Shown here: positions 25,321 to 54,929 of the stretch, piece by piece
Layout: each line of letters starts with the position of its first letter
How positions within the stretch are numbered: the first letter of the stretch is position 1
NCBI GenBank assembly: GCA_964187785.1
Contig: OZ076409.1
Span: 3,970,001-4,034,000 of the forward strand
Direction of reading: 5' to 3'
Length of the DNA stretch: 64,000 nucleotides
Origin: Amphiscolops sp. MND2022
Taxonomy: Eukaryota
The notes under the pieces: model-generated
Seen by the model: only the letters and a program-made list of their open reading frames with translations
Databases searched by the model: none
Told to the model about the DNA's origin: nothing
Position numbers and translations under genes: made by a program

Positions 25321-25480
25321 TTATGATGAATTTAAAAGTTTATGCAGAGAAGCATGGCGGAAGAAGTATAATTATTTATTAATAAATACGTTAGAAGATA
25401 AAAACAAAAACAAGTATAAAATATGCAATGAATCTAATCCGGTGTTCAAGGTGTTTAATCCACAAACGGAACCTTTTTAG
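25321..25480 (+). pseudogene. C-terminal fragment of packaging ATPase 2
   Basis: YDEFKSLCREAWRKKYNYLLIN matches the C-terminus of 42982-43908. Confidence 0.85.
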
Positions 25481-25541
25481 TAACTGAAGGAGCTTGTAAG
25501 ACCGAAGGTGCTGTGTATCAGCAGAGCTGGCTTCGCATGCT

Positions 25542-25905
25542 TTAGTGTTGATTTGTTGTAATGCATTGGTATTGTAATAGTTTATCTGCAATTGCTATGA
25601 TTTGTTCACTAAGCATAGGATTATCATTTCCTCGTACTTTTCCAAAATAAAATAGTTTTAATTGATCTACAAGCTCATCTGGATCAGATGGAAGAAAAAC
25701 ACAAATCAAAGATTTGCTCCGTCCAGGTGTAAAATTTAATCCACTTCCCAATTGGGATAGTTGATAAGGGATCTGTTGGTATATATTTTGATTAATCAAA
25801 TCTTTAATGAAATTATATCTCTTTGATTTTTTATCTCCATAATTTATATTATATTTCATATCATTCAATAAAGAATAAATTAGATTCACGTTGCTAATTT
25901 TGTTT
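25542..25905 (-). pseudogene. C-terminal fragment of the conserved Polinton PSDPDEL protein
   Basis: LPSDPDELVDQLKL...EQIIAIADKL, homologous to 41849-42847; repeated at 25904-26095 (+) and 26836-27183 (-). Confidence 0.85.
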
Positions 25906-26126
25906 GATTTGTGTTTTTCTGCCATCTGATCCAGATGAGCTTGTAGATCAATTAAAACTACTTTATTTTGAAAAAGTACGAGGAAATGATAATCCTATGC
26001 TTAGTGAACAAATCATAGCAATTGCAGATAAACTATTACAATACCAATGCATTACAACAAATCAACACCAAAGCATGCGAAGCCAGCTCTGCTGATACAC
26101 AGCACCTTCGGTCTTACAAGCTCCTT

Positions 26127-26326
26127 NNNNNNNNNNNNNNNNNNNNNNNNNNNNNNNNNNNNNNNNNNNNNNNNNNNNNNNNNNNNNNNNNNNNNNNNNN
26201 NNNNNNNNNNNNNNNNNNNNNNNNNNNNNNNNNNNNNNNNNNNNNNNNNNNNNNNNNNNNNNNNNNNNNNNNNNNNNNNNNNNNNNNNNNNNNNNNNNNN
26301 NNNNNNNNNNNNNNNNNNNNNNNNNN
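26127..26326. other. Assembly gap (200 N)
   Basis: Run of N. Confidence 1.
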
Positions 26327-28289
26327 TAAGAAAGGAAACGTTCACCTGTGATTTCGTCTGTTTGTGTTGTGTCCCTCTCTAGAAGGAAAACTGGGCAAAA
26401 AACTATCCGGTGCCCATGTTGGTCGCGTTTAGTGTTTTTTCGACAAAAAAGTTTTCCTTCGTTTGATGTATTTCTTGCAAGAATCTGACAGAAAAAGTAT
26501 TTCTTGCAAGAATCTGTCAGGTTCTTGCAAGAAATGTATTTTCTGCCAGAATCTTGCAAGATTTGTATTTTTTGTCAAGATCTTGCAAGAGTTGTAATTG
26601 TTTTCAACCAGGGTTATGATGAATTTAAAAGTTTATGCAGAGAAGCATGGCGGAAGAAGTATAATTATTTATTAATAAATACGTTAGAAGATAAAAACAA
26701 AAACAAGTATAAAATATGCAATGAATCTAATCCGGTGTTCAAGGTGTTTAATCCACAAACGGAACCCTTTTTAGTAACTGAAGGAGCTTGTAAGACCGAA
26801 GGTGCTGTGTATCAGCAGAGCTGGCTTCGCATGCTTTAGTGTTGATTTGTTGTAATGCATTGGTATTGAAATAGTTTATCTGCAATTGCTATGATTTGTT
26901 CACTAAGCATAGGATTATCATTTCCTCGTACTTTTTCAAAATAAAGTAGTTTAATTGATCTACAAAGCTCATCTGGATCAGATGGAAGAAAAACAAAAAT
27001 CAAAGATTTGCTCCGTCCAGGTGTAAAATTTAATCCACTTCCCAATTGGGATAGTTGATGAGGGATCTGTTGGTATATATTTTGATTAATCAAATCTTTA
27101 ATGAAATTATATCTCTTTGATTTTTTATCTCCATAATTTATATTATATTTCATATCATTCAATAAAGAATAAATTAGATTCACGTTTTAGCAACTTTTTT
27201 TGTCGAAAAAACACTAAACGTGACCAACATGGGCACCGGATAGTTTTTTGTCAGGTTTTCCTTCTAGAGAGGGACACAACACAAACAGACGAAATCACAG
27301 GTGAACGTTTCCTTTCTTAGACAAATGGCGCTTTAGGAGCAAACGAACCTGCATGTTACAGTTACTAAGTTTTCATACAGTCGACGTTTCCGGAGAAAAA
27401 CCACGGCTCTTGCAAAGATTGTTTTTTATCCAGTCCTTTTTGAACGGCACACTTTTCGTGCCAAAGTAAAGAGTTCCACAAAGATAGAGTAACTCAAACC
27501 CAAACTAGCTCTGAAGTCACGCTTTTTCGTTTGAACTTCCGAAAAAATGCAAACATCTTTACTGAACTCAGTTTGCAGGTGTAGGTGGGTACCCTGAAGG
27601 CCTGCTTCAGCTCGAGCTCATACATCGTGCCCTGGCTGTCCAGCACCCCACGGCGTTCTGTGTCTCTACCTTCCATTTGTGTTCGACTCCCGTTTGCATT
27701 TCCCACATCGGTGTTGAACGAATCGTCGAGGTCCTTGAAGAGAGCCCTGTCCTTCAGCATGAACCCGTTGCAACCCGAGTCCACCAATAACTCGAGTCCT
27801 CCTTCCTTTGGAGCCCCTTCAAAGCTTCCGAAGCTGAAGAAGCCAAGCTTAGCTGGACCCCGGACTGCCCTTTCTTGGTTTTGCAGTCTTTTGCAAGATG
27901 GCCCTTCTTATTGCACATGAAGCACGCCCTGCTTTCCTCTGACTTGCAATCTCTCGCCATATGTCCCTTTTTTGGCATTTGAAGACACGCTTTTTTTCGA
28001 CCTTTCAAAAAATTGCCATACGGTTGTCTTTCTGTGAAACTAGAACTTCAAAGGTACGAGGCTGACGCATGCAACGAGGACATTTTGGAACATGCTGAAC
28101 ACAACAAACTAGAAATTGCATGTCTTGCGAGAATCTTGCAAGAGAAATGTTTGTCTTGCAAGAATCTTGCAAGCTAAAGTTTCATCTTGCAAGAATCTTG
28201 CAAGAACCCTGTCAGAAAAATGCATTGTCTTGCAAGATCTTGCAAGACATCTTGCAAGATTCTTGCAAGATTTGTATTTTTTGTCAACT

Positions 28290-29143
28290 AGAAAACACCT
28301 CGAGTTTGTTGTATTCTTCACCTGTAAGGAAATAACTTTCATATTTTACATAATCCTCGGGACCCCATTTATGTTTAGTTGTATCATATACTACTTGGTA
28401 GTTGTGGTTGAGTATTTTATACTTTTGTGATCTAGTATCAAATTCAATTACGCCAAATTCTAACTGACTACGATATTGTTTCCAATGTTCTTTTAAGCAA
28501 AGCTCCTTCGGTATACTATAAGTGCTTACTATTGTTTCAAAGAAACTATCTGGATTGTTCATTGTTATAAAGGTCTTGAAACAATATTCTCTTACAACTG
28601 GGAGAACATCCTTTGCATAGTGTGCAAGATAAATAACTTGTACATTATGATGTCTACCAAACCTGAAAAAGTCTTCTACTTCGTTTTAAGGTTTTTATAT
28701 GCACCTGCATCATCCAGTTTTACCGTTTTATTAGCAAGTGATTCAATTTCTATTTTTTCTAATCGAAATAAAGGTATCTAATTCTCTTGACGGAATTCAG
28801 TTTCATCGCTACCGAATACTATAAAATTTGATACAGCAAACCTGGCTACGCATACCGCTTCGCTGGCTTTGCATTTAGTTTGGTCTAGGTAATGTTTTCA
28901 GAAAGATGTCTTACCTGATCCACTAGTACCATAAATTAACATATGAGAAATGGTATATGTAACTGGTGGAGTAAGTTCGTGTTCTTCTTCTTTGTTAGTC
29001 AAATGAGATTTTTTAAATCCCTTGAATTGTTTTAGTTTTTTGTATAGTTTTTCGTAATGTCTAGGTCTAATATAATACCAATAATTATATAAACCTATAA
29101 TAAAATTTACACATAATGAACCTATATAAAATTTTTCATTCAT
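28290..29143 (-). pseudogene. Packaging ATPase 1 of Polinton A
   Basis: Walker A IYGTSGSGKT, N-terminal hydrophobic segment; same stops as the left copy. Confidence 0.85.
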
Positions 29144-29157
29144 TTATTGATAAATAA

Positions 29158-30135
29158 ATGAAAGAAAAGAAGAAAAAACTGCTAAAGAAATATTCTCTCC
29201 TGTAATCAAGAAGTTTCAAAGAATTCAAATACAAACTCACTATGAAGATGAGTGTTCGAGTTTTGATCTCATTGACAGGTCTAGCTTATCAAAATATAAC
29301 AAAAACTACAAGTTTGTATTTACAGTAATTGACAATCATACTAAGTATGCATGGGCGATCCCCATCAAAGATAAAACCGGAAAAAGTACAACAACTGCAT
29401 TTAAAAGTCTTATTGGAAAAGCAAAAAGAAAACCTGATGAACTTTGGTCAGATAGAGGTAAAGAGGTTTATAATAAAAACATTTTTGAATTTCCTAAAAG
29501 AACAAAACATTCATATTTATTCCACTCATTCAGATTTAAAAGCTGTTTTTGTTGAACGATTCAATAGAACACTTTTAGACTTAATTAAAGAACCCATGTA
29601 CATTGAAGGAAAAGCTTGTTGGTTGATACATCTAGATACTGCTATGGAAAAATATAATAATCGTGTTCATGGAACTACTAAGATGACACCTTTTGAAATT
29701 TCAACTAATCAAAAATTAAAACCTAACAAAAAGATTATTTATTATAAACATAACACAGCAAAGCTGGCTTCGCATACCGAAGGCGCATCGCGTAAACAAC
29801 CCAAATTCCAAGTGGGAGACTATGTAAGAGTTCCTGATAAACGCAATTTATATAGTAAAGGATTTACACCAAATTGGAGTAGAGAACTTTTTAAAATGCA
29901 AAAAATGAATCCAACTAACCCAGTTACGTATGGTTTAGTAGATGAAAACAACGAACAAATAGAAGGAAAATATAATGAACAAGAACTTTTAAGAAGTGTA
30001 TTCAATTTTAAATCTAACAACAAAACGTTAGAAAGTATGAATATTTTCCATATCGATTGCGCTGTACGCGTACAGCGAAGTTGCCCTCCGGTAAATGTGA
30101 ATAATAATATTCAAATAAATAATGTCAGTTCATAA
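29158..30135 (+). pseudogene. Polinton retroviral-like (DDE) integrase, frameshifted
   Basis: FDLID, IDNHTKYAWAIP, WSDRGKE, KAVFVERFNRTL, YNNRVH...MTP, KGFTPNWS. Confidence 0.9.
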
Positions 30136-30876
30136 AGTCGGTTATAGTGCCGAAAGCTTACAAAAAGATAAGATTGAGAATCTTGAAGAAGAATTTGAAT
30201 CACAAACCAAATTATTTAATATAAAACTTAAAGATGTGCAAAGCACCGTTGATGGTGTATCTGATCAATTAGAAACGTTTAATACGCAAAGCGCCTTCGG
30301 TAACCTACAAAATACCGAAATAAAGTTAGAGAAGAAATTCAATTTATCAACGATGAAACACAAATCGTAGTCAATGCAAAGTTATTCTTAGATATAAATA
30401 AAAGTATAGAAGATATATAAATAAATTTGAAATATTTAGAACAAGATATTAAAAATAAATTATCAGACAAGAAGAAAGAAATAATTTCGGAAGCAGTCAA
30501 ACAAGCCAATGAACAACAAGTCATTTCACATAATCACTTCGAACGAAACATTTTTCTAGAATTGGAAAAATGTAAAAATCAAGCAGTCAAAGATACTATT
30601 CAATTACTTTATAATAAAGGATTGTTTGACTCATTTGAAAATAAAGACCAAATATTCCACGAATATTCAACATTTACAAACCAATACTTGTTGGAAAAAT
30701 ACGGAACAGAAATACAAACATCAGATGGGGTGTATTATTTATCAGACTTAGACGATTCAACAAGACAGACCGTGTTGAATACTCTAAAAAAAGACCAGTA
30801 CAAAGATATAGTTGACCTTAAATATAGAATGAAATTAACCACGAGCGATATCAATTTTATACTTTTCCAAAACTAA
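30122..30876 (+). pseudogene. Polinton hypothetical coiled-coil protein X1 (homolog of 52461-53237)
   Basis: HKxGYS N-terminus and KGLFDSFxNKDQ...TSDGxYYLSDL shared; frameshift near 30350. Confidence 0.75.
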
Positions 30877-38034: not shown

Positions 38035-38913
38035 TTTGTTTCAACGATCAACGATTAAACGATACTGAATTCTATACGGTGTACTCTGGTTATGACACCA
38101 CTTGTTATACCACCACTCGTTCTACCACCAAACTCACTTGGCCACCAAATAGTGCGCGGACGGAGTGTTTTTATTAGTCAATAGATATTTTCCGTTATAC
38201 CACCAAATTTGCTTACCAACACTTTTTGCCAAGTACCAAGAATGGTGGTATAACGATATTAAATTCAAAACTGAAATTAATACTGAACTATTTGAAATTA
38301 CTAGACAGAGATGTCTGGTACACTGTCTGGTATTTTTTCTTTGATGTGAGCTTTCCAAGAAATTTCAATAATTGTGCGTTGAAAATTTGTGCGGTGGTTA
38401 TTTTGTCGAACAGTTACGCGAAGCCAGCTTTGCTGTGTGTTTTCCACTTGAACGCATTTGCTATTGCACTTGAATGCTACTTTCTTTCCAAAAATTTTTG
38501 CTACAAGGAATCTCTCGATACAAATTTTTTCTAATAACATCCACAGCACAATAGAGGTTAGTGAGGTTTTGCTTCATGAAAATATTTTCCATGAAAATTT
38601 TTGCTCATCGATTTTTATTTTGTTAATTTTTTAGTTGCGAAAAAGGCGAATTTCAGATGATTTGCCTTGAAAAAATGCCTAATTTTGATGGTCTATTTGG
38701 TCAGATATTTAATCCACAATTTGATTAAATTTTTTTTAAAATTTCCAGTAGTGAAAATACACCAATTTTATCGACTTTTTAATGAAAAAATGCCTAATTT
38801 TTATGGTTTGACTGGCCTGTATCGGGAATACGTATACTACTGACGTGCATCTAATTAAAACAACATTGATAAGTTTAGTTGGAAACCATAACTATCGGGC
38901 TACATATTAGTAT

Positions 38914-39729
38914 AGTAGTAGGGGAAATCCCGATATTGGTCAACAAAACTCCAAAAATTAAAAGATCAAAAAACCCCTGATTTAGAGGCATTTTCCAAAA
39001 ATAAATCACCAAATTAGTGGTTTTCCCTTATCGGTCAACAAAACCCCAAAAATTAAAAAACCCCAAAACCATTGATTTTAAGCACAAAATCAGGCGTTTT
39101 CCAATTCAATCCGCGCGATAGCTACCGCAGCTTCGCAACCAACAAAAAATTCATTTGTTTGTAAAAGCGTCCAAGTAGAACCAACGTTAATGTACGGCCA
39201 ACGTTAATGTACGGCCAAAGTTAATGTACGGCCAACGTTAATGTACGGCCAACGTTAATGTACGCCCAACGTTAATGTACGGCCAACGTTAATGTACGGC
39301 CAACGTTAATATACCGGACTGTGTGCGGAGCTTCGCGTAATACAAATGAATTTCTACCATCCATTAAACACACACACATCTTCGTTAATTGGAGCTTTCG
39401 CAGGAGCTTTCGCAGTTTCCCAATGGTATTTATACAAGTAAAACTAACACCTCTTTGTCTCCTATAGCTTAGTGGTTATAGCATTGACTAAAGTTAAGGC
39501 TTTGGCCGGAGTGTTTGGGGTTCACTTCTATCCAACGTCCCCCTGTCTTTGTTATAACTTACATGCTATGGGAGAATAATCACCAATGGCACAGTTCTGA
39601 AAAAGGATGATCCCTGCTGTGGAAACTCTTAGTGGAACGGACTCCCGATGGGCTTTGAGTTTACCATAGGCATTAGCGTAGCTCCACCAATGCGCGAAGC
39701 TGTGGGCATGCCTATGGATTTTGTATTTT
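38914..39729 (+). repeat. Left terminal inverted repeat (~816 bp)
   Basis: Reverse complement of 53258-54039; contains the 17 bp array CCAACGTTAATGTACGG x7 plus a partial unit (39181-39310). Confidence 0.97.
39457..39575 (+). ncRNA. Candidate Pol III-type structured RNA in the left TIR
   Basis: A-box TAGCTTAGTGG (39465-39475); TCTCCTATAGC pairs with GCTATGGGAGA, and GTTATAGCA with TGTTATAAC; TATA-like motif ~30 nt upstream; divergent homolog at 324-433. Confidence 0.5.
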
Positions 39730-39756
39730 ATATTATAAGTATAACAAATATAATAA

Positions 39757-40165
39757 ATGAAAGTATCTCTCATTCAAAGATTTTATTGAAAAATACAGAC
39801 TAAAAAACGAAGCAACCTCTAATGTAAAAACAAAAGAAATACTTAATAAGCTTCGCATTCAGTGTGGAAGATACATGAGAGATGATAAATTTACAACAGA
39901 TTCAGGAATTGTAAATTTACACCCCTCAGTGGGAACACACTGGGTTATGTGTACAGACAAATACTATTTTGATTCATATGGATGCCCACCCCCAACTAAT
40001 ATACTTAATCACATTAAAAAAGGTATCTATTCAGAATTTCAAATTCAGAAAAATGATAGTTATTGCGCGGCGTATTGTTTATACACACTGTATCTCACAC
40101 AAATTTTAGGGTTCAAAAATGCAGTACTAAATTTATACTATCAAACTTTCAAATTTAATAAATGA
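39757..40165 (+). pseudogene. Adenain-like (C5) cysteine protease
   Basis: IVNL...GTHWV, YYFDSYG, QIQ...YCAAYC (H-D-Q-C); +1 frameshift just after the ATG at 39757. Confidence 0.9.
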
Positions 40166-40344
40166 AGAAAATTAATAATTATTCAGCTCAATATAATATT
40201 ATCTCGGAACAGTTTCACAATCAAAATTATGGAAAAAATACAGCAAAGCCAAAGAGTTTCACACATAAGAAAACATTATCAAAAGATAGGCAAGAATTTA
40301 TAAATAACATTTCCGCTAGTGGATATAAACCATTTCATGCCTAA
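40162..40344 (+). CDS. Small basic hypothetical protein, possible core protein
   Basis: 60 aa; starts in TAAATG context; tightly packed between protease and penton. Confidence 0.5.
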   Translation: MKKINNYSAQYNIISEQFHNQNYGKNTAKPKSFTHKKTLSKDRQEFINNISASGYKPFHA

Positions 40345-40347
40345 TAA

Positions 40348-41361
40348 ATGGATCTATCAAACTTTATAACATATGATAAAAAAGAATCTCTTCTTTTAAA
40401 TATTGCAAAATCTAATCAAGAAATAGTTGAAAATACACATTCAAAACCTCAAGAAACTCTAGAATTGAAAATGACTAAACAAAAAGAATCTTTCTCATTC
40501 GATGTTCCTCTCGTTTTAAATGAAAAATGGATGATGGGAGTAACAAGTTTAGAAGTATACAACACTGTATATAATATCACTAATAGCAATAACAAAATAG
40601 AGATTATTCTGAATGAACAACAACTCGAAGAGCATAGAGTTGACACTGAATTAGTGTCAAATATAAGGAAGTTGTATGAAACATCTGATGATAAAGTTTT
40701 AGAAAAAACTAATACACTTATAACTGATAGTTATTCTAAAAAGAAAAAAAAACTTACTAGAAAAGACGTTAACCAACTCAAGCAATTAACTGAAGTTTTT
40801 AACTATCCTAATCAACAAATACATATTCCCGACTTTGAAATTGAACATGATTCCTTTGGAATACAGTTAATACCAGGAGCATATGAATTAGTTGATATAA
40901 ATAATGCTAATAAACAAAAAATTAATGAAAGTGAATATGATTTTAAAATTGATATAATACCCGACGCAATATCAATGAAATCAGTTTTAACAACCTCAAA
41001 CCCTATTCATTTTAACTCCAGACTTAACAAAGTCCTGGGATTTACAAGAACCGAATATCAAGCGGGAACACACACTTCAGAAAAACCAGTCATGATAACA
41101 ACCACCGATAAAGTTCATCTGAAGTGCGACTGCGTAGATGGTTCAATTGTTAATGGTATACGAGAACAAATTTTATTTTCTTTCAATTTAAGCGCACCTC
41201 CTGGATATAAAATTATAAAAGAACCCACAACTGTTTTGTACAAGCTGATAAACAAAACACGACTGGACACCATCCAATTTTTCCTTGAGGACTCTAACCA
41301 AAACCCAGTTGATTTCAACGGGGAGACACTCACCTTCACAATTCAAATTATCAAAATATGA
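40348..41361 (+). CDS. Minor capsid protein (penton, single jelly-roll)
   Basis: Intact 337 aa; CDCVDGSIVNG...ILFSF...PPGYKIIKEP...LEDSNQNPVDFNGE is the typical Polinton minor capsid C-terminus. Confidence 0.88.
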   Translation: MDLSNFITYDKKESLLLNIAKSNQEIVENTHSKPQETLELKMTKQKESFSFDVPLVLNEKWMMGVTSLEVYNTVYNITNSNNKIEIILNEQQLEEHRVDTELVSNIRKLYETSDDKVLEKTNTLITDSYSKKKKKLTRKDVNQLKQLTEVFNYPNQQIHIPDFEIEHDSFGIQLIPGAYELVDINNANKQKINESEYDFKIDIIPDAISMKSVLTTSNPIHFNSRLNKVLGFTRTEYQAGTHTSEKPVMITTTDKVHLKCDCVDGSIVNGIREQILFSFNLSAPPGYKIIKEPTTVLYKLINKTRLDTIQFFLEDSNQNPVDFNGETLTFTIQIIKI

Positions 41362-41390
41362 TAGGATTTAATACAATTTTTTTCTAATAA

Positions 41391-41822
41391 ATGAGTGTAA
41401 ATAAATTTGAAAACAATTCATATTGTGTTGGTGGAAACCATTATTCCCCCACCACAAATATTTATGGAGATATCAGAAACAATAATGTAAAAATGTTACG
41501 TGGCAACTGTATGATATGTAGCAGAAATAACAGTCTAATTGTATCTGACCGAACAATATATGCAGAAGGATTGGGCGACTTTTTCAAACATATTGGCAAA
41601 GCTGCAAAGAATGTTGGAAAGAAGATACTCAATAATCCAGGCCGCGCACTCGAAATAGCAGCAAATATTGGAACTGCAGCAGCAACTAAAGATCCAAAAC
41701 TTATTGCCGCAACTGCCCCCGACGTCATTAAATTCATTCATCAAGGGAAGGGCCTATACAAAGCCGAAGGTTTGTCGACAAGAACTAATGGTAAAGGCCT
41801 GTATCTGGGGAAAATCCACTAG
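41391..41822 (+). CDS. Zn-ribbon plus amphipathic-helix protein (protein VI / cupiennin-like, putatively membrane-lytic)
   Basis: YC...H...C..C N-terminus, then AEG|LGDFFKHIGKAAKNVGKKIL and two GKG|LY motifs. Confidence 0.65.
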   Translation: MSVNKFENNSYCVGGNHYSPTTNIYGDIRNNNVKMLRGNCMICSRNNSLIVSDRTIYAEGLGDFFKHIGKAAKNVGKKILNNPGRALEIAANIGTAAATKDPKLIAATAPDVIKFIHQGKGLYKAEGLSTRTNGKGLYLGKIH

Positions 41823-41848
41823 TTATATTCATTATATAAATTTAATAA

Positions 41849-42847
41849 ATGTATTCAATTCACACCCGAGATGACTTAGAAAATTTTAAAAAATTACAAG
41901 AAACAAAATCTTTACTAAAAGCTGAAAGATTGAAAGAGAAACTAGGGAAGCAAGACTTTCATTATGATATGGAAGAAGTATTTGAACCCGTAACAGAAAA
42001 CCAAATCCAAATCCAGAAACCAAACCAAATTAAACAACAAGAACTTTCCGAAAAGCAGATACAAGCATTACATGACTCTACTCGCGCGATAGCTAGCGCA
42101 GCTACCACAGCTTCGCAAACTACAACACAAGCAATACAAGACCAAACTAGAGCCATACGAGAATCAAGTAACACAATGCAAAAATCAATGCAACAATCTA
42201 TTAAACAGGGAATTCAAGAATATGATGAAATTACTAACCGTAACAATCAACTCCTTACGAATCTTGTTAATTCAAACCAAGTTGATTCTAGTATTGTAAA
42301 GACAGTTTCCAACCTTCTTAACGACAATAACAAAAGTCAATTTAGTTTAGAACCTGTTAAAGGAAGCGCAAATTTATTCATAATTAACCCCCACAATCCA
42401 CAACAAGTATTAATTAAAAATACTACACTAACCTTCTTGGGTAGTGGTAACACATACGATCTAAATGACCCAGATCTTCAATATTTTATAACTAATACAA
42501 ATTTTGACAAACAAATAAATAACTTGGACACAATTTTTAAGTTCCTAAATGATATGAATTATAACACATCATCGTATGGGGATAAAAAATCAACCAGATA
42601 TCTTTTTATTAAAAGTTTGATTAATCAATATACATATCAACAATCCCAATTAGGGCAATTAGGAAGTGGAGTGGGTGAAATTGCACACGAACCTACACAA
42701 ATCATCTTCCTTCCATCTGATCCAGATGAATTAGTGGATCAATTAAAACTACTTTATTTTGAGATCCTTGGAGGAAATGACTCTTTTCTACTCAATGAAC
42801 AAATTATAGCAATTGCAGATAAACTATTTGTTTATCAGATAAACTAA
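41849..42847 (+). CDS. Conserved Polinton hypothetical protein with C-terminal PSDPDEL motif
   Basis: 332 aa; FEPVTE, LGSG and LPSDPDELVDQLKLL; the 3' end is disturbed by a small duplication. Confidence 0.75.
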   Translation: MYSIHTRDDLENFKKLQETKSLLKAERLKEKLGKQDFHYDMEEVFEPVTENQIQIQKPNQIKQQELSEKQIQALHDSTRAIASAATTASQTTTQAIQDQTRAIRESSNTMQKSMQQSIKQGIQEYDEITNRNNQLLTNLVNSNQVDSSIVKTVSNLLNDNNKSQFSLEPVKGSANLFIINPHNPQQVLIKNTTLTFLGSGNTYDLNDPDLQYFITNTNFDKQINNLDTIFKFLNDMNYNTSSYGDKKSTRYLFIKSLINQYTYQQSQLGQLGSGVGEIAHEPTQIIFLPSDPDELVDQLKLLYFEILGGNDSFLLNEQIIAIADKLFVYQIN

Positions 42848-42981
42848 TGCAATTGCAGAGTATGAATGCATATCACCTTCTCAACACCAAAATATCATTA
42901 GTTCTAGAATGGTTCCGTTTATAGATTGAAGATCATGTAATTTGGATTAGATTCATTACACACCTGGTATTTACTCCCATT

Positions 42982-43995
42982 TTAATCTTCCAATCTATTT
43001 ATTATTAAGTAGTTGTATTTTTCTTTCCATGCCTCTCTACACAAACTTTTGAATTCATCATAAGACATATCAAAACCAGCAATATCTCTATAAATGTGTT
43101 CAACATCTTTCAAGGTTTGTTGAAATAAAATGATTATATTTGAATTGTTTCTAATTGTTCTTTTGGGTACCTCAAAGTAACTCTGACTTAAATAATAAAC
43201 ATCACACAAGTTGTGTCGCCCTCTAGTAAAAAATGGATCTATTAATTTCTGATTGGTGTCTAACATGTCATCAAACACAACACAACAATTTTGAAAATCT
43301 TGAATACTCTCATCACCTAAATCTTCTTCCACTACCATGCCTTGTATTTTTGCACCTAGATCTGCATCCGCATATTGTTCAGGACTTCTCGTAAAGATAT
43401 ATATTTGTTTTTCGCGATAGCTCTCGCGAAGCCCTGCGTTAGCTCTCGCACTATCACTGCAACGCCCTGCATCACTGCAACGCCCTGCATCACTGCAACG
43501 CTCGCCCAATCGAATTAATTGTAACATATTTAATAACAAATGAAATTTACCACAAAATGATGGACCAACTAATAATGTACTATAATGCGTGGGAGCTATC
43601 GTGGGAGTTATCGCGGGAGCTATCGCGTTAGCTGTCGCGGAGCTTCGCGCATCATTATTGGCAGCACATTTAAAAGAATCTTTGATATTAATATAATCTT
43701 GTGCGTTAGCTATCGCGAAGCCCTGTGCGTTAGCTATCGCACGGCCTTGTTGCATATGCTGCTTCTTAATATGAGATTTTAAATAACTTTTATTTAATTC
43801 CCTATTACAAAATTCACACTTCACCTTTTTATTAAAACATTCTATACATGTACTGTACATTTTACCGTTTATATACTTATAAAAATTTGTATTGGAATCT
43901 GTCTTCATTTTATTACACTCTTTACATCTTTTTTCACTAGATCAATCATCACACACTGATTTTTCACAACTTTCATTACAAATTAAGCACTTCAT
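42982..43995 (-). pseudogene. Packaging ATPase 2 with Cys-rich Zn-finger N-terminus
   Basis: LLVGPSFCGKF, VVFDDML, FTRGRHNLCDVYYLSQSYF..IRNN (A32 family); ATG at 43995 followed by an in-frame stop. Confidence 0.88.
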
Positions 43996-44009
43996 TTATT
44001 TAGAGAAAA

Positions 44010-44330
44010 ATCATTAAATTCCTCTCGATTCCTCTAAGAATCACTCAGTTTCTCATCACTAAGTATCACTAAGCTAAATCTCTAAGAACCTCTAAGAATC
44101 ACTAGGTGTCTCTAAGACCCCTTATATTCACTAAATTCCTTTAAATGCCTCTCAGAAGGGCCCCTTAGAGAAACTGAGTGAAACACTAAATGTCTCTAAA
44201 TCCTCTAAATTTCTCTAAGAATCATTCCTCTAAGAATCACTAAGAGTCTCTAAATCCTCTAAATTCCTCTAAGAATCACTATATATTTTTTGTTAATTTC
44301 TTGCTAAATTCCTCTAAGAATCACTATGTT
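44010..44330. repeat. Degenerate CCTCTAAGAATCACT repeat array between the two ATPase genes
   Basis: Repeated CTCTAA(G/A) units, e.g. 44032, 44089, 44227, 44266 and 44311. Confidence 0.75.
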
Positions 44331-44375
44331 TTTTATGTTATTTTTGCCATTTTTTGCTAATTCCTCAGTGTATTT

Positions 44376-45479
44376 TTAGTAAAGTTTTTTTGCATGATCA
44401 AATATAATTTTCTTAAAGTCCTCTTTAACTGAATCACTAATTAGTGGTTGTTGCATACGCTCAACGTAGTTGTCTATTTTGGATTCATTCACTCTGATGT
44501 TATTTGGTTTGCAATGAGCTACATAACAATAAGCTATGTTGAGTGGCGTTATTTCAATTGTCTGGTCGGACATTGCCTCTAAAAATACCTTCAATCTGTT
44601 GTAATCATCACCGGTGAAAAAGTAACTTTCATAAGCAACGAGTTGTTCTGGGCCCCACTTACTCCGTTTGCTCGAATCATAAATTAAATTGTACCCATGG
44701 TTAAATACCTTATATTTCTGACTCCTAGTGTCAAATTCAATTATACCATAATCTAACTGATCGCGGTAGTATTCCCAATTAAGCCCATTCTTAAAAGAAT
44801 AAGCTTGTACAATCGACTCGAAGAAGTTGTCTGGGTTATTAATTGTTAGAAATTATTTACTACAGTTTTCCCTCACGACTGGAAGAACATCCTTTGCATA
44901 GTGAGCGAGATAAATTACTTGAATGTTGTGGTGTCTACCAAACCGAAACACGTCTTCTATGTTTGTTTTAAGATTTTTGAATGCACCTGCATCATCCAAT
45001 ATAACAATCTTATTAGCAAGTTGTCCAGTACTAACATTTGCCAACTGCTGTAGTGGCACAAAGTTTTGAGGGGGAAACTCACGTTCATCTCGCCCGAATA
45101 CTAGATAACTTTGTTGGACCTGTGTTAAATAATGCTTTAGGAAGGATGTCTTCCCAGAGCCACTACTGCCATAGATTATGAAATGCGAGTTGCTATAAGC
45201 GTTGTCCTGTTCTTTAATTTCCTGTTCGCGTTCCTGGTTTGTAAGATGAGAGTATTTGAACCCTGCGAATTGTAGTAGTTTTTTATAAATTGTTTTGAAT
45301 TGTCTAGGGCGAATATAGTTCCAATATATTGCCACAACAATACAAACCACAAAAATTATACACACCACAAACATTGGTTTTGTGATTGTTTTATAGATTT
45401 GTGTTTTCTGAAACCAATGTAGTTTCGCGCAGCTTCGCCCACTGCCTTCATCATTAATCAAACTATAATCAATATTCAT
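44376..45479 (-). pseudogene. Packaging ATPase 1 with N-terminal transmembrane segment
   Basis: MFVVCIIFVVCIVVAIYW; IIYGSSGSGKT; VILDDAGA; FRFGRHHNIQVIYLAH; frameshift near 44855. Confidence 0.88.
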
Positions 45480-45502
45480 TTCTATAGAAGAAATTGTTAT
45501 AA

Positions 45503-46414
45503 ATGAACATCAATCAAAAGGCAAAAGCTGAAACGGAGCTTCGCACAGAGCTTCGCAAAGAGCAGATTGCTAAAGAAATATTCTCTCCTATAATCAAGAA
45601 GTTTCAAAGAATTCAAATACAAAATCACTATAAAAATTAGTGTTGGAGTATCGATTTAATTGATCGCTCAAGTTTAAGTAAATACAACAAAAACTACAAG
45701 TTTATTTTTACAATAATTGACAATCATACTAAATATGCATGGGCGATTCCTCTTAAAGGTAAATCAGGAAAAAGTACAACTGAAGTATTCAAAAAACTAA
45801 TAGAAACTAGTAAAAGAAAACCGCATAAAATTTGGTCTGATAGAGGTAAAGAGTTTTACAACACAACATTTTTACACTATTTAAAAGAGCAAAATATTCA
45901 AATTTATTCAACCAATTCAGATTTGAAAGCTGTTTTTGTTGAACGATTCAATAGAACACTTTTGGATTTAATCAAAGAACCAATGTACATTGAAGGTAAA
46001 GGCAACTGGTTGAATCACATTAATAATGCTTTGGATAAGTATAATAATAGGGTGCATGGTACAACAAAAATGACACCATTTGAAATGAGTTTTAAGATAC
46101 CAATACACGCGATAGCTACCACAGCTTCGCCCAAGTGCCACGCAGCTTCGCCCAAGTTCCAAGTGGATGATTTTGTAAGAGTTCCTGACAAACGGAACAT
46201 TTATTCAAAAGGTTATACAACAAATTGGAATAGAGAATTTTTCAAAATACACAGCATTAATTCAACGAACCCAATAACGTACACTCTAAATGATGAAAAC
46301 GGAGAAATTATTCAGGGAAAATATTATGAACAAGGACTTTTAAGAAGTGTATTCAACTTTGAATCTAACAACAAAACGTTAGAAAGTATGAATATTTTTC
46401 ACAAAATGGAGTAG
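45503..46414 (+). pseudogene. Polinton DDE integrase
   Basis: SIDLID, WSDRGKEF, VERFNRTL; a single in-frame TAG at 45638. Confidence 0.92.
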
Positions 46415-46484
46415 TGTTCCACGCAGTTTTTACACACTTTTCCTCACACTTTTCACGTAGTTTTCCAATAATTTTTTATTATAA

Positions 46485-47743
46485 ATGAGTATGTTCTCTT
46501 TAAAAAATAAATACACTCTTGAGAAACCTATTCATAAAATTGATTTTATAAAGTATAGTCCGAGTAGTTTGGCGACATTCAATAACGCAAACTCGAATGT
46601 AAGTATCAGTTTGCCATGAGAAGATGCTTATATTTGTTTGCAGAACTCCTATTTATCATTAGAATTTGAAGTTCTTAAAAACGATAATACAAGATACACC
46701 AATGGTGATGAAATAAGCCTCGTTAACTTTGGGCCAATCTCTTTATTTAGTGAAGCTAAACTGACAACATCTAGTGGGAAACACCTGGAAAAAGTTGACA
46801 ATTTGCACCAGATTTCTTTAATGCTTAAACTTCTGACAAGCACTAGTCAAACTTCTCAATTGATGTATGGAATTGAAGAAAGTACTACTATCAGAAGACA
46901 AGAACTAACAAACAACAAAAATGAGAAAGGAAACCTTTTTTTGTCCGAATTAAATTAAAAGACCTGTTCGGATTTGCTGATCAAGAAAAAATAACTTATG
47001 GATTGGGCTACACCTTAAGTCTAAAACGTAACAACAACAATGACGCGATTTTAAGAAGTAATACAGTGGATGCAGCAAAAATAAGTGTAAAAGACATTGG
47101 TTGGTATATTCCACACTATACACCCAGCTTGGAAAACCAACAACTTGTCATGGATCAGCTCCTGAATAAAGACCCAACCGAGCTGTATTACACAGAAAGA
47201 AGTGTCTTTAGAAAAGATGTTAACACCAATAATAATTGGACATTTGAATTAGGCAACGCAAGCGGAAATAGCGGCGGCAGCTATCGCGGAAGTGAATCAC
47301 CCACTTTTATTATTGTTGGATTTCAAGCTAGAAATAAAATTGATTCACAAACACATGACAACTCTGTGTTTGACAGGCTGCCAATTAGTAGTGCTGTTTG
47401 TAAAATAGGATCAGAAAAATATCCCGATGATGGAATAGAAAGTGATTACGACCGCGACAAATATGATCAAGCATACAGTGAAATTGAAAACTTTTATCAC
47501 TTGCACTCTGAGTGTAATTTACTCAACCCATTTATTGATTTGCACAAATTCAGGACAAATTATAATTTTTATGTATTTGACCTGAGCAAACAAAAAGACC
47601 AAATTGCAAGTCAACCAATCCGTTTAGAATTTAAATTTAGCAATCAAATTGATGTAGCAGACTACATAGCTTATGCACTTGTACTAACCCCAAAACTAAT
47701 AAGTATTAGTAGTGATGGACAAAGGCATTTTGATTTATTATAA
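46485..47743 (+). pseudogene. Major capsid protein (double jelly-roll) of Polinton B
   Basis: Same motifs as 31526-32752; TGA at 46617 and a frameshift near 46935. Confidence 0.88.
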
Positions 47744-47852
47744 AAGATCTGCCGAAGATCTGCCGACCTTCTTTAATACATAAAATAATGATGATATTTA
47801 TAAAATGATAATAATAAAAAAAATGTAATTAGCTTCGCATAGCTTCACGCAA

Positions 47853-50800
47853 TCATAAAAGATCTGCCCGATCACTTATTAGATTTAAAAGCTCTTGATG
47901 AGTTAATTTTTCTTTCCAATACCAAACATTGAAATTAATTTCTTCATCTGTTTTCTTGCTACCGTCATCATTTATAGTTAATTCTTTATAATACAAACCA
48001 ATTAATTTCAAACAATATATACAAGGACAATCACCACTTTGTACGTGTTCATCCCATGATAAACTTTGTATTGGATTTAAGTACACACGCTTGTCATCAA
48101 AAGGATTCAAAGCTAGTTTATCTTGTTTCTGAACAGTTAGGTTGTGGGTATTAGATCTAATTGAATAATTAGTTTCGGTTGTTGTTTCAGAATTAAATAA
48201 TGAATTTATAAATTGTGAATATGGTGGTGTATGTTGTATTCCTTTTTGTTTTGATTTCTGCGTAGTTCCATAGCTAAAAGAATATGATTTAGATCTCAAA
48301 GCTACGAAGTTGTCTAATTCAATAATTGGTGATTTTCTATTTTCATTTTACCTATTACTTTCTTGTTGATTGAGTTGTACAATTCATGACTTGGGTCAAG
48401 CTCGCTGAAATCAAAATCATCTTTGAAGTATTCCAAATCATTTATAAGGTCTCCAGTTTTAATACTTAGAATGAATGAGTCTGTATCCATGTAATGCAGT
48501 TTGACACTTGAACTGTAGTATGGTTGTAATTTGTGATAATAAAACTCATACATTAACAATTTACTCAGTTCTAAAACAGAGAATCCCAAGTAAATTGGTT
48601 TATCAAAAACTGTCTTTTCTTTATCAAACTTGTAAACACTGAATTCGGAGTAATGATTTACAATACCTTTGAAGCTTAACGTGGATTGTCTTTTTATTAT
48701 TTGATTAATATTGGTGTGGGGGATAAACTCTAAACTAGTCCGGTCCCTAACATTTTCCATAGTCTTGCCAAAGAAGGCATTGTTCATTAATTTGTACAAA
48801 TCCTTCTCAAAGTTTGTTTTTGCTTTGGTGCGTTTTTGGGTGTTATGATCAATGTATTTTGCTAACCAAAGTGATTGTTTGAATCTGTAAATCGTATGTA
48901 TCTTTGTTACTTTCATCCCCAAATTCATGTAAAATTTGAACATCCTGTAGTGCATCATATAAATATATTTGTTTGTTAGATCACACATAAGTTTCTTGGT
49001 TGGTTTGTAGTTGGGTTGTTTTACACTGTTCATATACGTTGTAAACAACTCTGGATCCGCTTTTGTTTGATAAGGACATAGTGGAAAGTTTTCGGTTTTT
49101 TCTTTAATTTCAGCTGGATACTCTAAATCACTTTCTATAAAGTAGCCAAATTCATTATCATCTGGTGTATTCAAAATGTCTTCTTTAATTTCTTCTATTA
49201 GTAATTCATCAACATCGCATATGAAGCTCTGCATCTTTTTGAAGTGTCCAGTAGGAAGGTATTGACTCATTGCCCATCCATAAAGATTATTTGCATCAAT
49301 GTACAGTAATTTAGTGTTGGTGTCTGACTCAATGTAACGAGGTCCCATTACACTTGAAATTCCTCCACGGATGTTATTTTCAAGTAGTAATAATAACTGT
49401 TTGTCTTTTATGAAATCTAATTTAATATTGGTAAGTTTTAAACCAGCTTTCCATGTATAACCCGGTAGACTATAAGAGTACAACGGATTGATGCCATACA
49501 TAAGAGTGCTTGTTTCAACAAAGTTTTCGAACACATCAGTGATTTGTAGAACATCCATTTTTAAGTATAACATAGATAGTTCTTGTGCTATTGTAATGTT
49601 GTAAGTGTCAATCAATTGTTGGGTTCTTTTTATATCATCCTCACATGGGTAAGATTGTGTTAGTGTTGACCAAAAGTCTTCTTTTGTTAGATTTAGTGGT
49701 TCTTGCGTAGCTTCGCGGAAATTGTTAAGATTGAATTTTTCGTATGGATAAGCTAGTTTTTTCTTAAATAAACTAACAGTTAGGCCTTCATTTTGCATAT
49801 AAGGAAAATCATTTAATGATGTTATAAGTTTTTGTAGACTACTACTCAAAAATCTGTATGAGTCTAAAAACCTTAAACAACCTATTTGAACTGATACATA
49901 GTTTTCCATTGACTTTGGTATAATATTTATTGGCAACTTTAGATTATAAGCTGATGTTAAGAGTTCTTCAAATATGAGATGACAATCATAACCTCTTAAA
50001 ATATGGAAAAATATAGGAACAAACGCACTTGACTTTTTTTACAATTTAAATCACACTTGTTGTGGGCTGCTCCTCTGTACTTACCTGTTAGGTGATCGTG
50101 ATCTCTTACTTTAACATGCGAAGCACCTTCGGCCCCGCCGAGTGGATTTTCACAAAGCCAACACTCTTCTGCAAATTGAAATGATTCTTCTTCTTGGGGA
50201 GTTATTTCAAGAGGAATATTAGTTTCGAAATATTCCGATGCAATGTTTTCTAAAGTCAACATTTCATTTACAAACCATGTTACACAATCTACTCCAAAGT
50301 ATGAGTAGTACTTGTTTCGCGGAGCTCCGCCAAATGGTGAAATCAGATAAAAGCCTACTGCAATTGGAATTTGTTTAAATAATACTTTGGACTTGTCTGT
50401 GGGTGCAGCTTCGTGATATTTTGTGGGATCATTCTGAGGCTGATTAATACATTCAAAATCTTCATATACTCTTATTGGTATAGGAATTTTCATATGATAA
50501 TCTTCGAACTTTAAATGATCCTTCCAACTGAATGTGATATTAGTTGGTTGTTGTTTTTGACAACGGCCAATGTGTTGATTGAGAATATCCTCAGAACTAA
50601 ATGCAGTTAGACATCTTCTACACACCCATTTCTTGTGTGAATCTTTATTTATTAGACAGTGTAATTTTGTTATTAAGCAATAATGATTTTCAAATAGCAG
50701 CAAGTCTATTTGTGGTTGATCATAGTTTGTGGAAATGTGGATTGGTGTTAAAACTGTTTTTGTGAGTTCAAATACATTTACGTTTAAATTATTTAAGTTT

Positions 50801-51720
50801 TCAAACTTGGGAATATCTTTACCTTTCATAGGAAATTCTAAACCTTCTAGGTTGAGTTTATTGAAGTGCATTGAATAATTTGTTGTTCTACTTTTATTGT
50901 CCTCAACGGGATATAGCTTTGCTAGGATGCACCACAAAAAACAAAATTGATCATCATTTTTTATATTTATAATTGATTTATTATTCTTATATTTTTATGG
51001 CAACTCAACCCATGAAGAAGCTTGAATATCATTGACTTTATATACCTCCATTATAACATTGACAATACCGTTTAACACAAAACCTGATCCTTCTAATTGT
51101 TCATCATCTAATTTCTGCATTAACCTGTTGTGAACATTCTCATAACTACCGACGGCGCTCTGCGTGTGATTGTAATTAAAATCTGATTTAACCCATTTGT
51201 GAAATACAACTTCTTCTCCGCTGATGTATTTTGAAAACTTAGCTAAATAACTCAATTGGAACTTGTATTGGGGAAACAAGCTAGTTCTTAGCAAATCATT
51301 AATCTGTTCTTCAAGATGATGCGAAGCGACGCTTGTTGGATTTACTTTCAGTTTAATGTATCTTTTTTCATTCACAATTACTTTTACTCCATTACCGAAT
51401 GTGTTTTGTGTATTTCGTGTATCTTGACTAAGTTGATTGTTTTGACTTCTTAACGTGTGAATTTCACTTTGGAAATGTCTTGAATTACTTATATATTTAC
51501 CACAATCTTCACACCAAATTTGTGTAGCTTCACGTTGTTGTTTGTTTTTGTTTTTATGTTCATCTGAATTTAGATGATTAGACTTGTCAGGCAAAGGCAT
51601 AAATGTATTACATTTTTTACAATAATATTGATTTAATTTTTCTAAATGTTTTACTGATTTTAGATGATCTGATTTGTAAGATTTTTTATACATAGAATTG
51701 CAGGTATTACATTTCTCCAT
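47853..51720 (-). pseudogene. Protein-primed DNA polymerase B (Zn fingers, OTU-like, EndoVII, exonuclease, polymerase)
   Basis: QFCFLWCI...HYCLI (OTU-like), VRDHDHLTGKYRGAAHNKC, LRFLDSYRF, YIDANNLYGWAM, KLMNNAFFGKT, YMDTDS; frameshifts near 50995, 50040 and 48320. Confidence 0.96.
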
Positions 51721-51853
51721 TTCTTTTATTATAAAAAAATTAATTTAATAGCATTTAAATTTCTTTAAAATAGGAGTTATTTTTCATTTAATTTTATGTT
51801 AAATTTCATGTTAAATTTCATGTTAAAATTAATGTTCAAATTGAATAAATTAA

Positions 51854-52457
51854 TTATAAAAAACTGTTTGGTTTATGACTTGTATCGCATGGCTTCGCAC
51901 GCATGTTTTGTGTTTGAGTTTGATAATTTTCAAATTGAGTCACAAATCGTTGATATTCTTTTTCATCCACATAGTTGTCTTTTAGGCTAGCAGTGTAAAG
52001 GTGTCTAAAGTCATTGAGTGTCTTCTGAATAATAGCGTACTTAAGTTTATAATTTTGTTCTTTTTTCTTCAAATAACTAGAACAAATTTTAACAAGAATA
52101 CCAGTTGCACAACCAACTCCTGCAGCGATTGGAACAACTATAATACCCACACCAGTAATACTTACACACCAGTGTGACAGATGTTGAAGTTGTTCCAATC
52201 ACTATAATACCATCGAGGGAGTTAATTAGGTTATTTATTAGCTTGTATTTGGTGTATTTTTTCTTGTATTTCTTTTCTTCCAATTCATAATATTTCATCA
52301 TTAGACTAATGTTTTGAATAGAATTATTGAAACTATTTACTTTTTGTAATTCGCGTTGCAATTCACTTTGCAATCGCTTATTTATGAGAGTTTCAACATC
52401 ATATGGTGCGGAGGGACTGAGAGTGGGGGTCAGGGACGGATAGAGTTTTTGTTCCAT
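51854..52457 (-). pseudogene. Hydrophobic-hairpin protein X2
   Basis: LYPSL, SFNNSIQNI, SITGVGIIVVPIAAGV; frameshift near 52170. Confidence 0.75.
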
Positions 52458-52460
52458 TTA

Positions 52461-53237
52461 TTAATCATATAAAATGAAATTTATTTCCATTGGTGTTAAT
52501 TTCAAACGGTGTTTCATATCAACAAGGTCTTTATAGGAATCTTTTTTCAATGACTCTAAAATTGATTGTCTAATAGAATATTCTAAATCAGACAGATAAT
52601 ATTCACCATCTGAAGTAGGTATTGTTTTTCCATACTTTTCAAATAAGTGTGCTTCACTGAAAGTGAGGTATTGTTCAAATGCTTGATCTTTATTGGGAAA
52701 AGAATCAAACAACCCTTTATCATAAAGTAGTTGAATTATGTTTTTAGTTATAGTAATTTTATTCTCGTGCAGGCCATTAAAAAGTTTAAACATTTCATCT
52801 TCATTTAAAATCATTCCAGCTTGACCCGGTGTCGACAAAAACTTTAAGTTGTGGACTGTTAACATTTCAAAACTATTGTTGTGTATTAAATTTAGTACTT
52901 CATTTACTAAAGCAGTTCTTTGTTCGGTAGAAGATTTTTTCATATTTTGTTCTAACTTATTTATGGTTTTTGAAAGGTCTGAAAACTGGGAATAAATATC
53001 TTTGATTAACTTTGAGTCTAATAAAACATTTCGAATTTCCTGAGAGTCTAATAAGTTTCCTGATAAGTTTCCTAATTCATTTTCTAATTCATTTTCGAAA
53101 TCTTCTTTTAATTTGGAATGGGTTATTTGGGCTAATTTTTCTTGACTTTTTATCATATCTTTTAGCTCCTGATATTCCCGTGGTTTTAGCTGTTCACTAG
53201 AATAACCAAACTTATGAAGAGACGGAGTTTCATACAT
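52461..53237 (-). CDS. Hypothetical coiled-coil protein X1
   Basis: Intact 258 aa ORF homologous to 30122-30876. Confidence 0.75.
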   Translation of the reverse strand: MYETPSLHKFGYSSEQLKPREYQELKDMIKSQEKLAQITHSKLKEDFENELENELGNLSGNLLDSQEIRNVLLDSKLIKDIYSQFSDLSKTINKLEQNMKKSSTEQRTALVNEVLNLIHNNSFEMLTVHNLKFLSTPGQAGMILNEDEMFKLFNGLHENKITITKNIIQLLYDKGLFDSFPNKDQAFEQYLTFSEAHLFEKYGKTIPTSDGEYYLSDLEYSIRQSILESLKKDSYKDLVDMKHRLKLTPMEINFILYD

Positions 53238-53257
53238 TTATTAAAATGAAAAAGTTG

Positions 53258-54039: not shown

Positions 54040-54929
54040 TAGTATAAATGTACTAATCAAAAAGCCTACCTAAGGTAACATGTACGGAATAATTCTTAAA
54101 ACTGAAATTATTTGGTTAGAATGAAAATAGCAGCAAAGACTCATGGTAAGATAGCATCAAATATTGCTAAAACGAGGTTGAGTTTAGAGTAAAGTTCTAA
54201 AAAATATATGTTTTACCACTACCAGAAAAGGCCACATTTGCTTCTAGGCTGCGCTCAATATTAATATACTTCCCAGTTGAACTTCACAAAATTTATAGTT
54301 TCTTTCTGCAAATCCTCTATTTAGGTTATGAGCAGATTTTTCGATTTTTTGACGTTTTTCTTTTGTACCAGTCAGTGGAAAGTTTCAATTGCTAACTACA
54401 TAATGGTAACCCTGTAAGCTTATTTGATCGAAATGTAGCGCTATTTCCCAATATCAGATCCGTCCCGAAAGTTTTCGTTTTCATTGTAGCATTTCCGAAA
54501 CAGTTTGAAAAACAGCAAATTTTTAACGTTCATTTTCTCTTGATGTTTTTCGAGCATTTACGAAAAAATGCAGTTTCACAGCGATTAATGTTTGTGACTC
54601 CCTTTCATTTAATTTACTCGAAGTGCTTTGCCACTTGAAAAGCTTTGTTACAGATTGACCTCACGGGCTTGAAAAACAAAACGAATCTGAATCCGTAAGA
54701 CTGAGAGTGCAGAAGATTAAGAGTACAAACCTTTCAGGAGAAACGAAACGTATTTGACTTCATACCAAGACTTCACTTCGTTCTCTGAACATCCCTTGCT
54801 GACCAAAAGGACATCTCAATCTTGAGTATCAAGGTGAAAAGATTTTTTCTCCAAATATGTCGAAAACTATAATCAAGTTTTCCTGTTTTTGCATTGATGG
54901 AGCTGTAAAACCTCTAGAAATATTAGAAT

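Follow-up and report, generated by a model that had tools for sequence, protein, structure and literature searches.

A candidate structured RNA unit near the termini of several Polinton lineages in Amphiscolops

Near their ends, several Polinton lineages in the genome of Amphiscolops sp. MND2022 carry a self-contained unit with a conserved fold, and we see about an even chance that it is a structured RNA gene, with RNA polymerase III (Pol III) as the likelier enzyme. The unit was studied in a 64-kb window (the whole stretch of DNA analyzed, to which all coordinates refer), in which an earlier note had pointed to an element repeated inside Polinton termini and likened it to adenovirus VA RNA. 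In the reading we prefer, this element would be the 5′ domain of a compact transcription unit with a TATA-like box ~26 nt upstream. The RNA, read inward, would have its first base at or close to the G of GTCTCC, and its first ~120 nt would form a panhandle with an A-box match immediately behind the 5′ arm and, ~40 nt farther on, a B-box-like motif. In the family represented by Polinton B (family B), it would continue to a second hairpin and then to T4/T5 runs, giving a length of about 245 to 275 nt. The product would most likely be a Pol III-transcribed non-coding RNA laid out like vault RNA or adenovirus VA RNA, and plausible roles would be binding host proteins or buffering the host's RNA-based defense.

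Polinton B and its terminal repeats

Polinton B is complete at 38914 to 54039 and is framed by a 6-bp target duplication, TAGTAT, at 38908 to 38913 and 54040 to 54045. Its terminal inverted repeats are ~815 bp long and lie at 38914 to 39729 (+ strand) and 53259 to 54039 (− strand), as delimited by inverted-repeat arms (I3, I5, and I16 on the left), the terminus motif, and the TAGTAT duplication. Pfam searches of its proteins returned an rve integrase (37.7 bits), a Pox_A32-type ATPase (28.7 bits), and a DJR-like (double jelly-roll) capsid protein (74 bits); the polymerase B open reading frame (ORF) had no Pfam match at an E value of 0.01, and a DTDS motif is visible in its sequence. Terminal repeats, a 6-bp duplication, integrase, ATPase, capsid protein and, by its DTDS motif, a polymerase are thus all present, as expected of a Polinton. 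The first genes are a protease at the left end and a 258-amino-acid ORF at the right end, whose first ATGs (39757 and 53237, respectively) lie 28 and 22 nt beyond the adjoining terminal repeat. The inner ~305 bp of the left repeat constitute the RNA-like unit. Its counterpart in the right repeat occupies 53258 to 53563 (− strand), with a TATA module at 53550 to 53563, hairpin 1 at 53531 to 53413 (covariance model score, 154.9 bits), hairpin 2 at 53324 to 53271, and T runs at 53269 to 53258.

Copies and lineages of the unit

Alignment confirmed the three copies reported in the earlier note and the sequence blocks that they have in common. One lies in each Polinton B repeat, at 39457 to 39575 (+) and 53531 to 53413 (−), and a third lies near the start of the window at 433 to 366 (−), hereafter the start copy. 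All of them point inward, as had been described, at a distance from the terminus (38914 and 54039 for Polinton B and near 923 for the start copy) that measures ~495 to 545 bp, close to the ~490 to 540 bp first given. A pattern drawn from the core matched the 1.07-Gb genome 612 times (314 + 298), while a reversed control gave no match, so the element is not a chance pattern. Most matches form +/− pairs ~14 to 15 kb apart, from which we estimate roughly 300 genomic copies of family B.

The same Polinton flanks were found at 29 of 30 sampled loci, the remaining locus being the start copy. This speaks against a possibility that the earlier note had itself raised, namely, that the motif is an unrelated high-copy SINE head found mostly outside Polintons. 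Heads of tRNA-derived SINEs do resemble the element in carrying A-box- and B-box-like motifs, but the element is not dispersed at the sampled loci, lacks a poly(A) or simple-repeat tail, and is not flanked by a target duplication. A MITE or foldback transposon was likewise rejected, as there was no dispersal into unrelated flanks at the 30 sampled loci and no target duplication around the unit.

Pattern searches and BLAST brought up further lineages in the genome. Besides subfamilies of B, these are L092, L091, and L085, long forms that have both arms, and the short forms L086, L089, L090, L093, and L094, which are missing ~38 nt, the part that holds both 3′ arms. The short forms keep the core despite this loss and have T4 to T5 at +46, which would stop Pol III early and is a point against reading the element as an RNA gene. 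Identity to the 39457 copy is at background upstream of −36, is raised at −35 to −1 in 6 of 8 lineages, and is high from +1 to +80 in all 8 and to +120 in the long forms. Farther downstream, L091, L085, and the short forms are at background identity to B, while L092 is still 89 to 91% identical. Across lineages with unalignable flanks, the core is better conserved than the arms.

The earlier note had found no element at the Polinton A end, and we agree, since the inner 1.1 kb of that end, which lies near 38843, contains no copy. Polinton families L087 and L088 also lack the element. The C7 lineage has a terminal repeat of only ~300 bp (98% identity between ends) and, ~190 bp inside the repeat at one end, its only copy of the element; at the opposite end, the repeat is followed directly by the protease gene. 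Presence in both terminal repeats is thus true for family B and false for the C7 lineage. A covariance model was built from 19 copies and run on the 64-kb window and on selected loci, where it recovered all expected copies and had no match at the element-free C7 end, in two related terminal repeats, in the 20 kb to the left of the window, or in the rest of the window. Its hit alignment mixed in antisense matches and was left out of the pair counts given below. Beyond this genome, a search of viral contigs for relatives of the element gave no matches, and the seven loci found in metagenome contigs all lacked the second block and so are chance matches.

A position outside the terminal repeat and at a single end, as in C7, speaks for a gene and against a function of the terminus. 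The proposal in the earlier note of an ssDNA replication or packaging structure is disfavored by this position and by the absence of the element from other Polinton families. An element acting in cis at the DNA level, whether as a hairpin or cruciform or as a set of protein-binding sites in replication, packaging, or integration, would fit the constant distance from the ends at which the element lies in both family B repeats, and inverted-repeat arms that need like recognition would also covary. We nevertheless consider it quite improbable, given the C7 copy and the Polinton families without the element, the short forms that keep the core without both 3′ arms, the conserved TATA upstream and T runs downstream, and an asymmetry of 51 G·T to 5 A·C on one strand. 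In family B, the terminal repeat would have expanded to 815 bp and so enclosed the unit, which places two copies in each of ~300 elements; Polinton B would then illustrate how a lengthening terminal repeat can engulf a gene.

Fold and covariation of hairpin 1

Hairpin 1 (39457 to 39575, + strand) has outer arms at 39458 to 39468 and 39565 to 39575 and inner arms at 39474 to 39483 and 39550 to 39559, and it scores 151.9 bits with the covariance model. Within it, on the same strand, the alignment of copies marks an invariant CTAAAGTTAA at 39488 to 39497 and a conserved block at 39508 to 39523. The inward strand has a minimum free energy of −44.1 kcal/mol (z = −4.44; none of 200 shuffles folds as well), compared to −31.0 kcal/mol (z = −2.98) for the opposite strand. 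Among the 19 long-form copies, 95.7% of cells in the 11-bp outer helix are paired, and sliding the 3′ partner by 1 to 3 columns lowers pairing across the whole structure from 89% to 42 to 49%. The inner helices differ between our two structure analyses of the hairpin.

Three outer-helix pairs have changed on both sides (CG 9/UG 6/AU 3; AU 15/GU 2/GC 1; and AU 12/GU 3/GC 2); the arms with these changes are those of L092, L091, and L085. The inner helix of L092 has three one-sided changes, each of which keeps or improves pairing. Where subfamily B2 has an A·C mismatch, L032, L034, and L039 again have a G-C pair, and because the restored variant is found at both ends of one element (L032/L033), it must be older than that insertion. 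Nine cells have changed on both sides, versus 3.4 in shuffles (reached by 1 of 500 shuffles), and the covariation score of 0.093 is a modest excess over the 0.076 of shuffles (6 of 500 reach it); the count of pairs changed on both sides was reached by 48 of 500 shuffles. These controls are of moderate strength, with few independent lineages contributing (the B subfamilies, L092, L091, and L085). On the inward strand, 51 cells are G·U and 5 are A·C, and this excess suggests an RNA that is read in the orientation given by the TATA-like box.

The conservation does not follow a reading frame. The earlier note had argued against coding from a 1-nt difference in the spacer between conserved blocks, and this argument holds: the conserved halves lie in different frames in B and in the start copy. 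With the halves out of frame with each other between copies and stops in every other frame, protein coding was rejected. A spliced-leader RNA was also considered, since AAA/GTTAAG could be a splice donor, and was dropped, as the start copy has AT at the putative donor and no Sm-like site was seen by eye.

A transposon insertion in the start copy

By alignment, the start copy consists of only the first 68 nt of the element (366 to 433, − strand), within a fragment of another Polinton lineage that has its terminus near 923; relatives of its terminal repeat are present elsewhere in the genome. The copy ends at 366, and from 365 downward lies a DNA transposon with inverted termini (1 to 365, − strand), which is unrelated, is present in high copy number with unrelated flanks in the genome, and is not part of the element. 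A first look at this family gave 898 candidates, of which 40 were scored; leaving aside the copy in the window, the remaining 39 were 89 to 92% identical over query positions 557 to 930. The flanks of the other copies are unrelated, and the same terminus recurs in inverted orientation 1.1 to 1.8 kb away. As a transposon or MITE family (1 to 365 on the − strand and loci L041 to L069), it is 1.1 to 1.8 kb long, with the same 21-nt inverted terminus, starting CATTACAGTGCATC, at both ends. Neither the other end of the transposon nor the rest of the interrupted Polinton was found within 20 kb to the left.

Because the element is cut at 365/366, the CTGGAA arm, the ACAGGTCTTAAA block, and the T4 of the start copy are all foreign. 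The compensatory stem described in the earlier note therefore survives in one half: the pairing of TTATAG with TTATAA in B is real (fold z = −4.44), whereas the CTGGAA arm is transposon sequence. The downstream ACAG..AAA block (ACAGGTCTTAAA), which had been listed as shared, belongs to the transposon in the start copy, as the near-identical ACATGTCTTAAA, one base off, stands at the same offset in 28 of 29 other transposon copies. So does the T4 that had been noted after the 324-to-433 copy. The start copy is thus a case in which the insertion of a transposon fakes a compensatory change.

Upstream module and Pol III-like signals

Upstream of hairpin 1 lies a promoter-like module at 39425 to 39449 (+ strand), which consists of a TATA-like box (core at 39431 to 39434, 26 nt before the element) followed by AAGTAAAACTAACA and is kept at the same distance in lineages that cannot be aligned farther upstream. 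The TATA core and the following AACTAAAACTAACA hold their spacing in 22 of 22 aligned copies. Inside the element, TAGCTTAGTGG at 39465 to 39475 matches the A-box consensus, TRGCNNAGTGG, at all specified positions in family B and in the L086 and L092 lineages. The B-box-like motif at 39519 to 39529, which is GGTTCACTTCT in B and GGTTCGCTTCT in other lineages, fits 7 of 9 specified positions of the consensus, an imperfect match, as the earlier note had also cautioned. That note had described the 5′ part as a tRNA-like A-box/D-loop; by eye, the D stem is not kept across lineages, the 3-bp stem of B being broken in the start copy, in L092, and in the L086 group. CTTAGTGG, which forms the core of the A-box-like block, occurs a second time at 39626 to 39636, ~170 nt into the unit and inside a predicted small hairpin.

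No T run directly follows hairpin 1. In intact B-type copies, T4 is absent from +1 to +238 to 262, and the first T4 occurs at +238 to +263. A T4-free stretch of 262 nt is not unusual, as it is found in 24% of composition-matched shuffles and in 9% of windows; T4 absence as a signature of selection was rejected as not significant, with 24% of shuffles being T4 free too.

For comparison, host U6 genes have a TATA-like box at about −30 and T5 to T8 at their end. Three of them (loci L103 to L105) share GCTGTTATTYYG ~26 nt before the TATA-like box, and several element lineages have GTTATTTC 21 to 25 nt before TATA. This U6-type upstream motif is missing upstream of host U2 and MRP and in the copies within the window itself. 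Its occurrence in the element lineages is kept only as a lead.

Downstream part of the unit

In family B, hairpin 1 is followed by a middle segment (39576 to 39663, + strand) that is conserved between family B and L092 only, with 89 to 91% identity to L092 versus 51 to 56% to L091 and L085, and that has no unusual fold (z = −0.96). Hairpin 2 (39664 to 39717, + strand) has a stem of 10 to 12 bp and a variable loop. In a search that demanded TTT after the arm, it was found in 39 of 43 distinct copies, with loops of 6 to 54 nt and one pair that varies as C-G, U·G, and U-A across lineages. Two T4 runs follow at 39719 to 39729 (+ strand), where the right copy and most others have T4 and then T5, and the arm of the terminal repeat ends at 39729, so that the Polinton B repeat stops directly after the T runs of hairpin 2. 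Measured to the first T runs, the family B unit is about 265 to 275 nt long, and the length of ~110 to 120 nt expected in the earlier note does not hold for it.

Both repeats adjoin the first coding gene, which leaves room for a promoter or leader role. The TATA-like box could be a Pol II promoter for the mRNA of the adjoining first gene (the protease on the left and the 258-amino-acid ORF on the right), with the hairpins forming a structured 5′ leader that acts in cis on stability, on translation, or on escape from host sensing. A TATA core at −26 would suit such a promoter, as would the lack of a T run directly after hairpin 1 and the way in which the unit, on both sides, points to the first ATG and ends 22 to 28 nt short of it. 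We regard this alternative as unlikely, though it is the most serious of those considered. The leader would be ~300 nt long and contain eight upstream ATGs, and seven gene starts, including those of both terminal genes, have a TAATAAATG context of their own. In C7-type lineages, moreover, a second TATA (GGGTATATAAGG) lies ~50 to 60 nt beyond the element. Neither the terminal hairpin with its T4/T5 runs, which has no role for Pol II, nor the invariant A-box-like and B-box-like blocks would be explained.

Comparison with known RNAs

The check for a known family that the earlier note had proposed, with Rfam and a tRNA finder, matched no VA RNA, tRNA, or other Rfam family. ARAGORN found no tRNA genes in the 64-kb window, Rfam at gathering thresholds gave no match over the window, and no family matched over 39380 to 39680 at E values up to 10. 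An opposite-strand snoRNA match at the start copy (Rfam, E = 10) was set aside as noise. A tRNA identity was rejected, as neither ARAGORN nor Rfam had a tRNA match at the element or its truncated copy. The element contains a T-loop-like GGTTCA with at most 2 flanking pairs; by eye, there is no tRNA-like T arm.

Adenoviruses belong to the same wider lineage as Polintons, and their VA RNA is a highly structured Pol III transcript of about 160 nt with internal A and B boxes and with its 5′ and 3′ ends paired in a terminal stem. The element is like VA RNA in its paired 5′ and 3′ ends, and in having a carrier of this wider lineage. It differs in that VA RNA has a T run after the terminal stem and the element has none, and the unit is longer (~265 nt in B), has a TATA at −26, and lies at the genome end rather than internally. 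The host presumably has no PKR pathway of the kind that VA RNA targets. The idea in the earlier note that Polintons may encode a structured small RNA laid out as for Pol III survives and is strengthened by the conserved upstream TATA, compensatory changes in other lineages, the wobble asymmetry, and the terminal hairpin with its T runs; it fails as far as membership in the VA RNAs or any other Rfam family is concerned. The literature on VA RNA includes PMC3643585 and PMC4140831.

Vault RNA (RF00006) has the same layout: an A box that immediately follows the 5′ arm, a B box, a 3′ arm that pairs with the 5′ arm, and an upstream TATA-like box. The panhandle is 107 to 135 nt long in host vault RNA and 119 to 121 nt long in the element, and a stretch of 13 to 14 nt in the A-box region resembles that of host vault RNA genes. 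In contrast, T5 to T6 directly follows the 3′ arm in 3 of 4 host vault genes fetched and does not do so in the element. Host vault RNA genes score 44 to 54 bits with Rfam RF00006 (threshold, 34 bits), whereas the element had no match at E values up to 10, and the element's own covariance model had a best E value of 1.6 on the host vault genes, in the wrong register. The host vault RNA genes include a tandem array at C8:47.69 to 47.86 Mb, which holds 43 of the 49 listed matches, ~690 bp apart and scoring 44 to 54 bits. Two other vault-type host genes (C6 and C8:52.87 Mb) have an embedded tRNA-like stretch.

The likeness to vault RNA in the A-box region, together with the imperfect inverted repeat that the 26-nt arms of hairpin 1 make up, could also mean that the unit is a functionless relic, either of a small foldback or MITE-like insertion or of a captured host sequence derived from tRNA or vault RNA. 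Such a relic is very improbable. No copies were seen outside the Polinton context at the 30 sampled loci, no target duplication flanks the unit, and the covariance models link it to host vault RNA in neither direction; a relic would also not be expected to have a core more conserved than its arms in lineages with unalignable flanks or compensatory changes that preserve pairing.

Other virus-borne small RNAs, namely the tRNA-like TMERs of MHV68, the EBERs, the miRNA cluster of BLV, and BocaSR of bocavirus, have type 2 internal promoters, and some virus-borne Pol III RNAs are tRNA-like in sequence and clustered near the genome end. The element differs from the TMERs, EBERs, BLV cluster, and BocaSR in having no cloverleaf and no evident pre-miRNA-sized hairpins of the usual form following it. 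The literature on such Pol III small RNAs of herpesviruses, retroviruses, and parvoviruses includes PMC8223928, PMC12498455, and PMC11194592.

Expression data

The one public run that was found, X1, is labeled a metatranscriptome and is available as contigs. It contains short contigs that are 85 to 99% like 39477 to 39670, with variant arms, together with small pieces of the protease gene. No X1 contig covers 39330 to 39473, a gap between contigs that is not informative on the start site, and the short contigs give no starts, ends, or strand. Between them, two of the contigs supply variant 5′ and 3′ arms that could base-pair, which is no more than a hint, since it assumes that both come from a single molecule. 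The contigs show that another sample holds relatives of the unit, which may be present there as RNA. Since DNA can be in such a library, X1 is weak support for the RNA-gene reading.

Significance

Polintons are usually treated as protein-coding virus-like transposons, and a literature search of titles and abstract openings returned no description of a Polinton non-coding RNA. A stronger claim is that a vault- or VA-like structured RNA, transcribed by Pol III, is encoded by this animal's Polintons themselves and is the first example of a non-coding RNA gene in the Polinton/polintovirus group. This claim is tentative, and we hold it to be rather less likely than its opposite. If it is true, structured decoy RNAs could be an old trait of the adenovirus-Polinton lineage, or they could have been captured from host vault-type genes, and in either case they would be used against RNA- or protein-based defense. 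The most successful family, with ~300 copies, would then have doubled its RNA dose by drawing the gene into its terminal repeat. If a conserved small RNA gene is present, the gene set of Polintons would gain a functional class new to it, and the finding would be relevant to where adenovirus VA RNAs came from. Its product, being short and abundant, would be easy to detect and would offer a direct means of telling whether and when Polintons are active in animals.

Other features of the window

Several observations concern Polinton B and its surroundings. In the protease gene (39757 to 40165), the frame of the ATG stops after 10 codons, and the adenain-like ORF goes on in a different frame. The TAATAAATG context occurs at seven Polinton B ORF starts (39757, 40162, 40348, 41391, 41849, 52457, and 53237), both terminal genes included, and AATAAATG is found 10 times in the 15.1 kb of Polinton B, counting both strands; TAATAAATG and AATAAATG may represent a gene-start or promoter motif of this element. 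The B terminal repeat contains two tandem repeats, a 17-nt unit present 7.9 times (39181 to 39314) and a 12-nt unit present 2.1 times (39391 to 39415) just upstream of the TATA box, and tandem copy number is unequal between the two ends. The terminus of Polinton A, at 38821 to 38843 (− strand), is ~70 bp off the left end of Polinton B. Elsewhere in the window, nested inverted repeats at 21590 to 30755, with arms of up to 1,187 nt that are 98% complementary, surround a gap of 200 N (26127 to 26326) and may be an inverted duplication or an assembly artifact.
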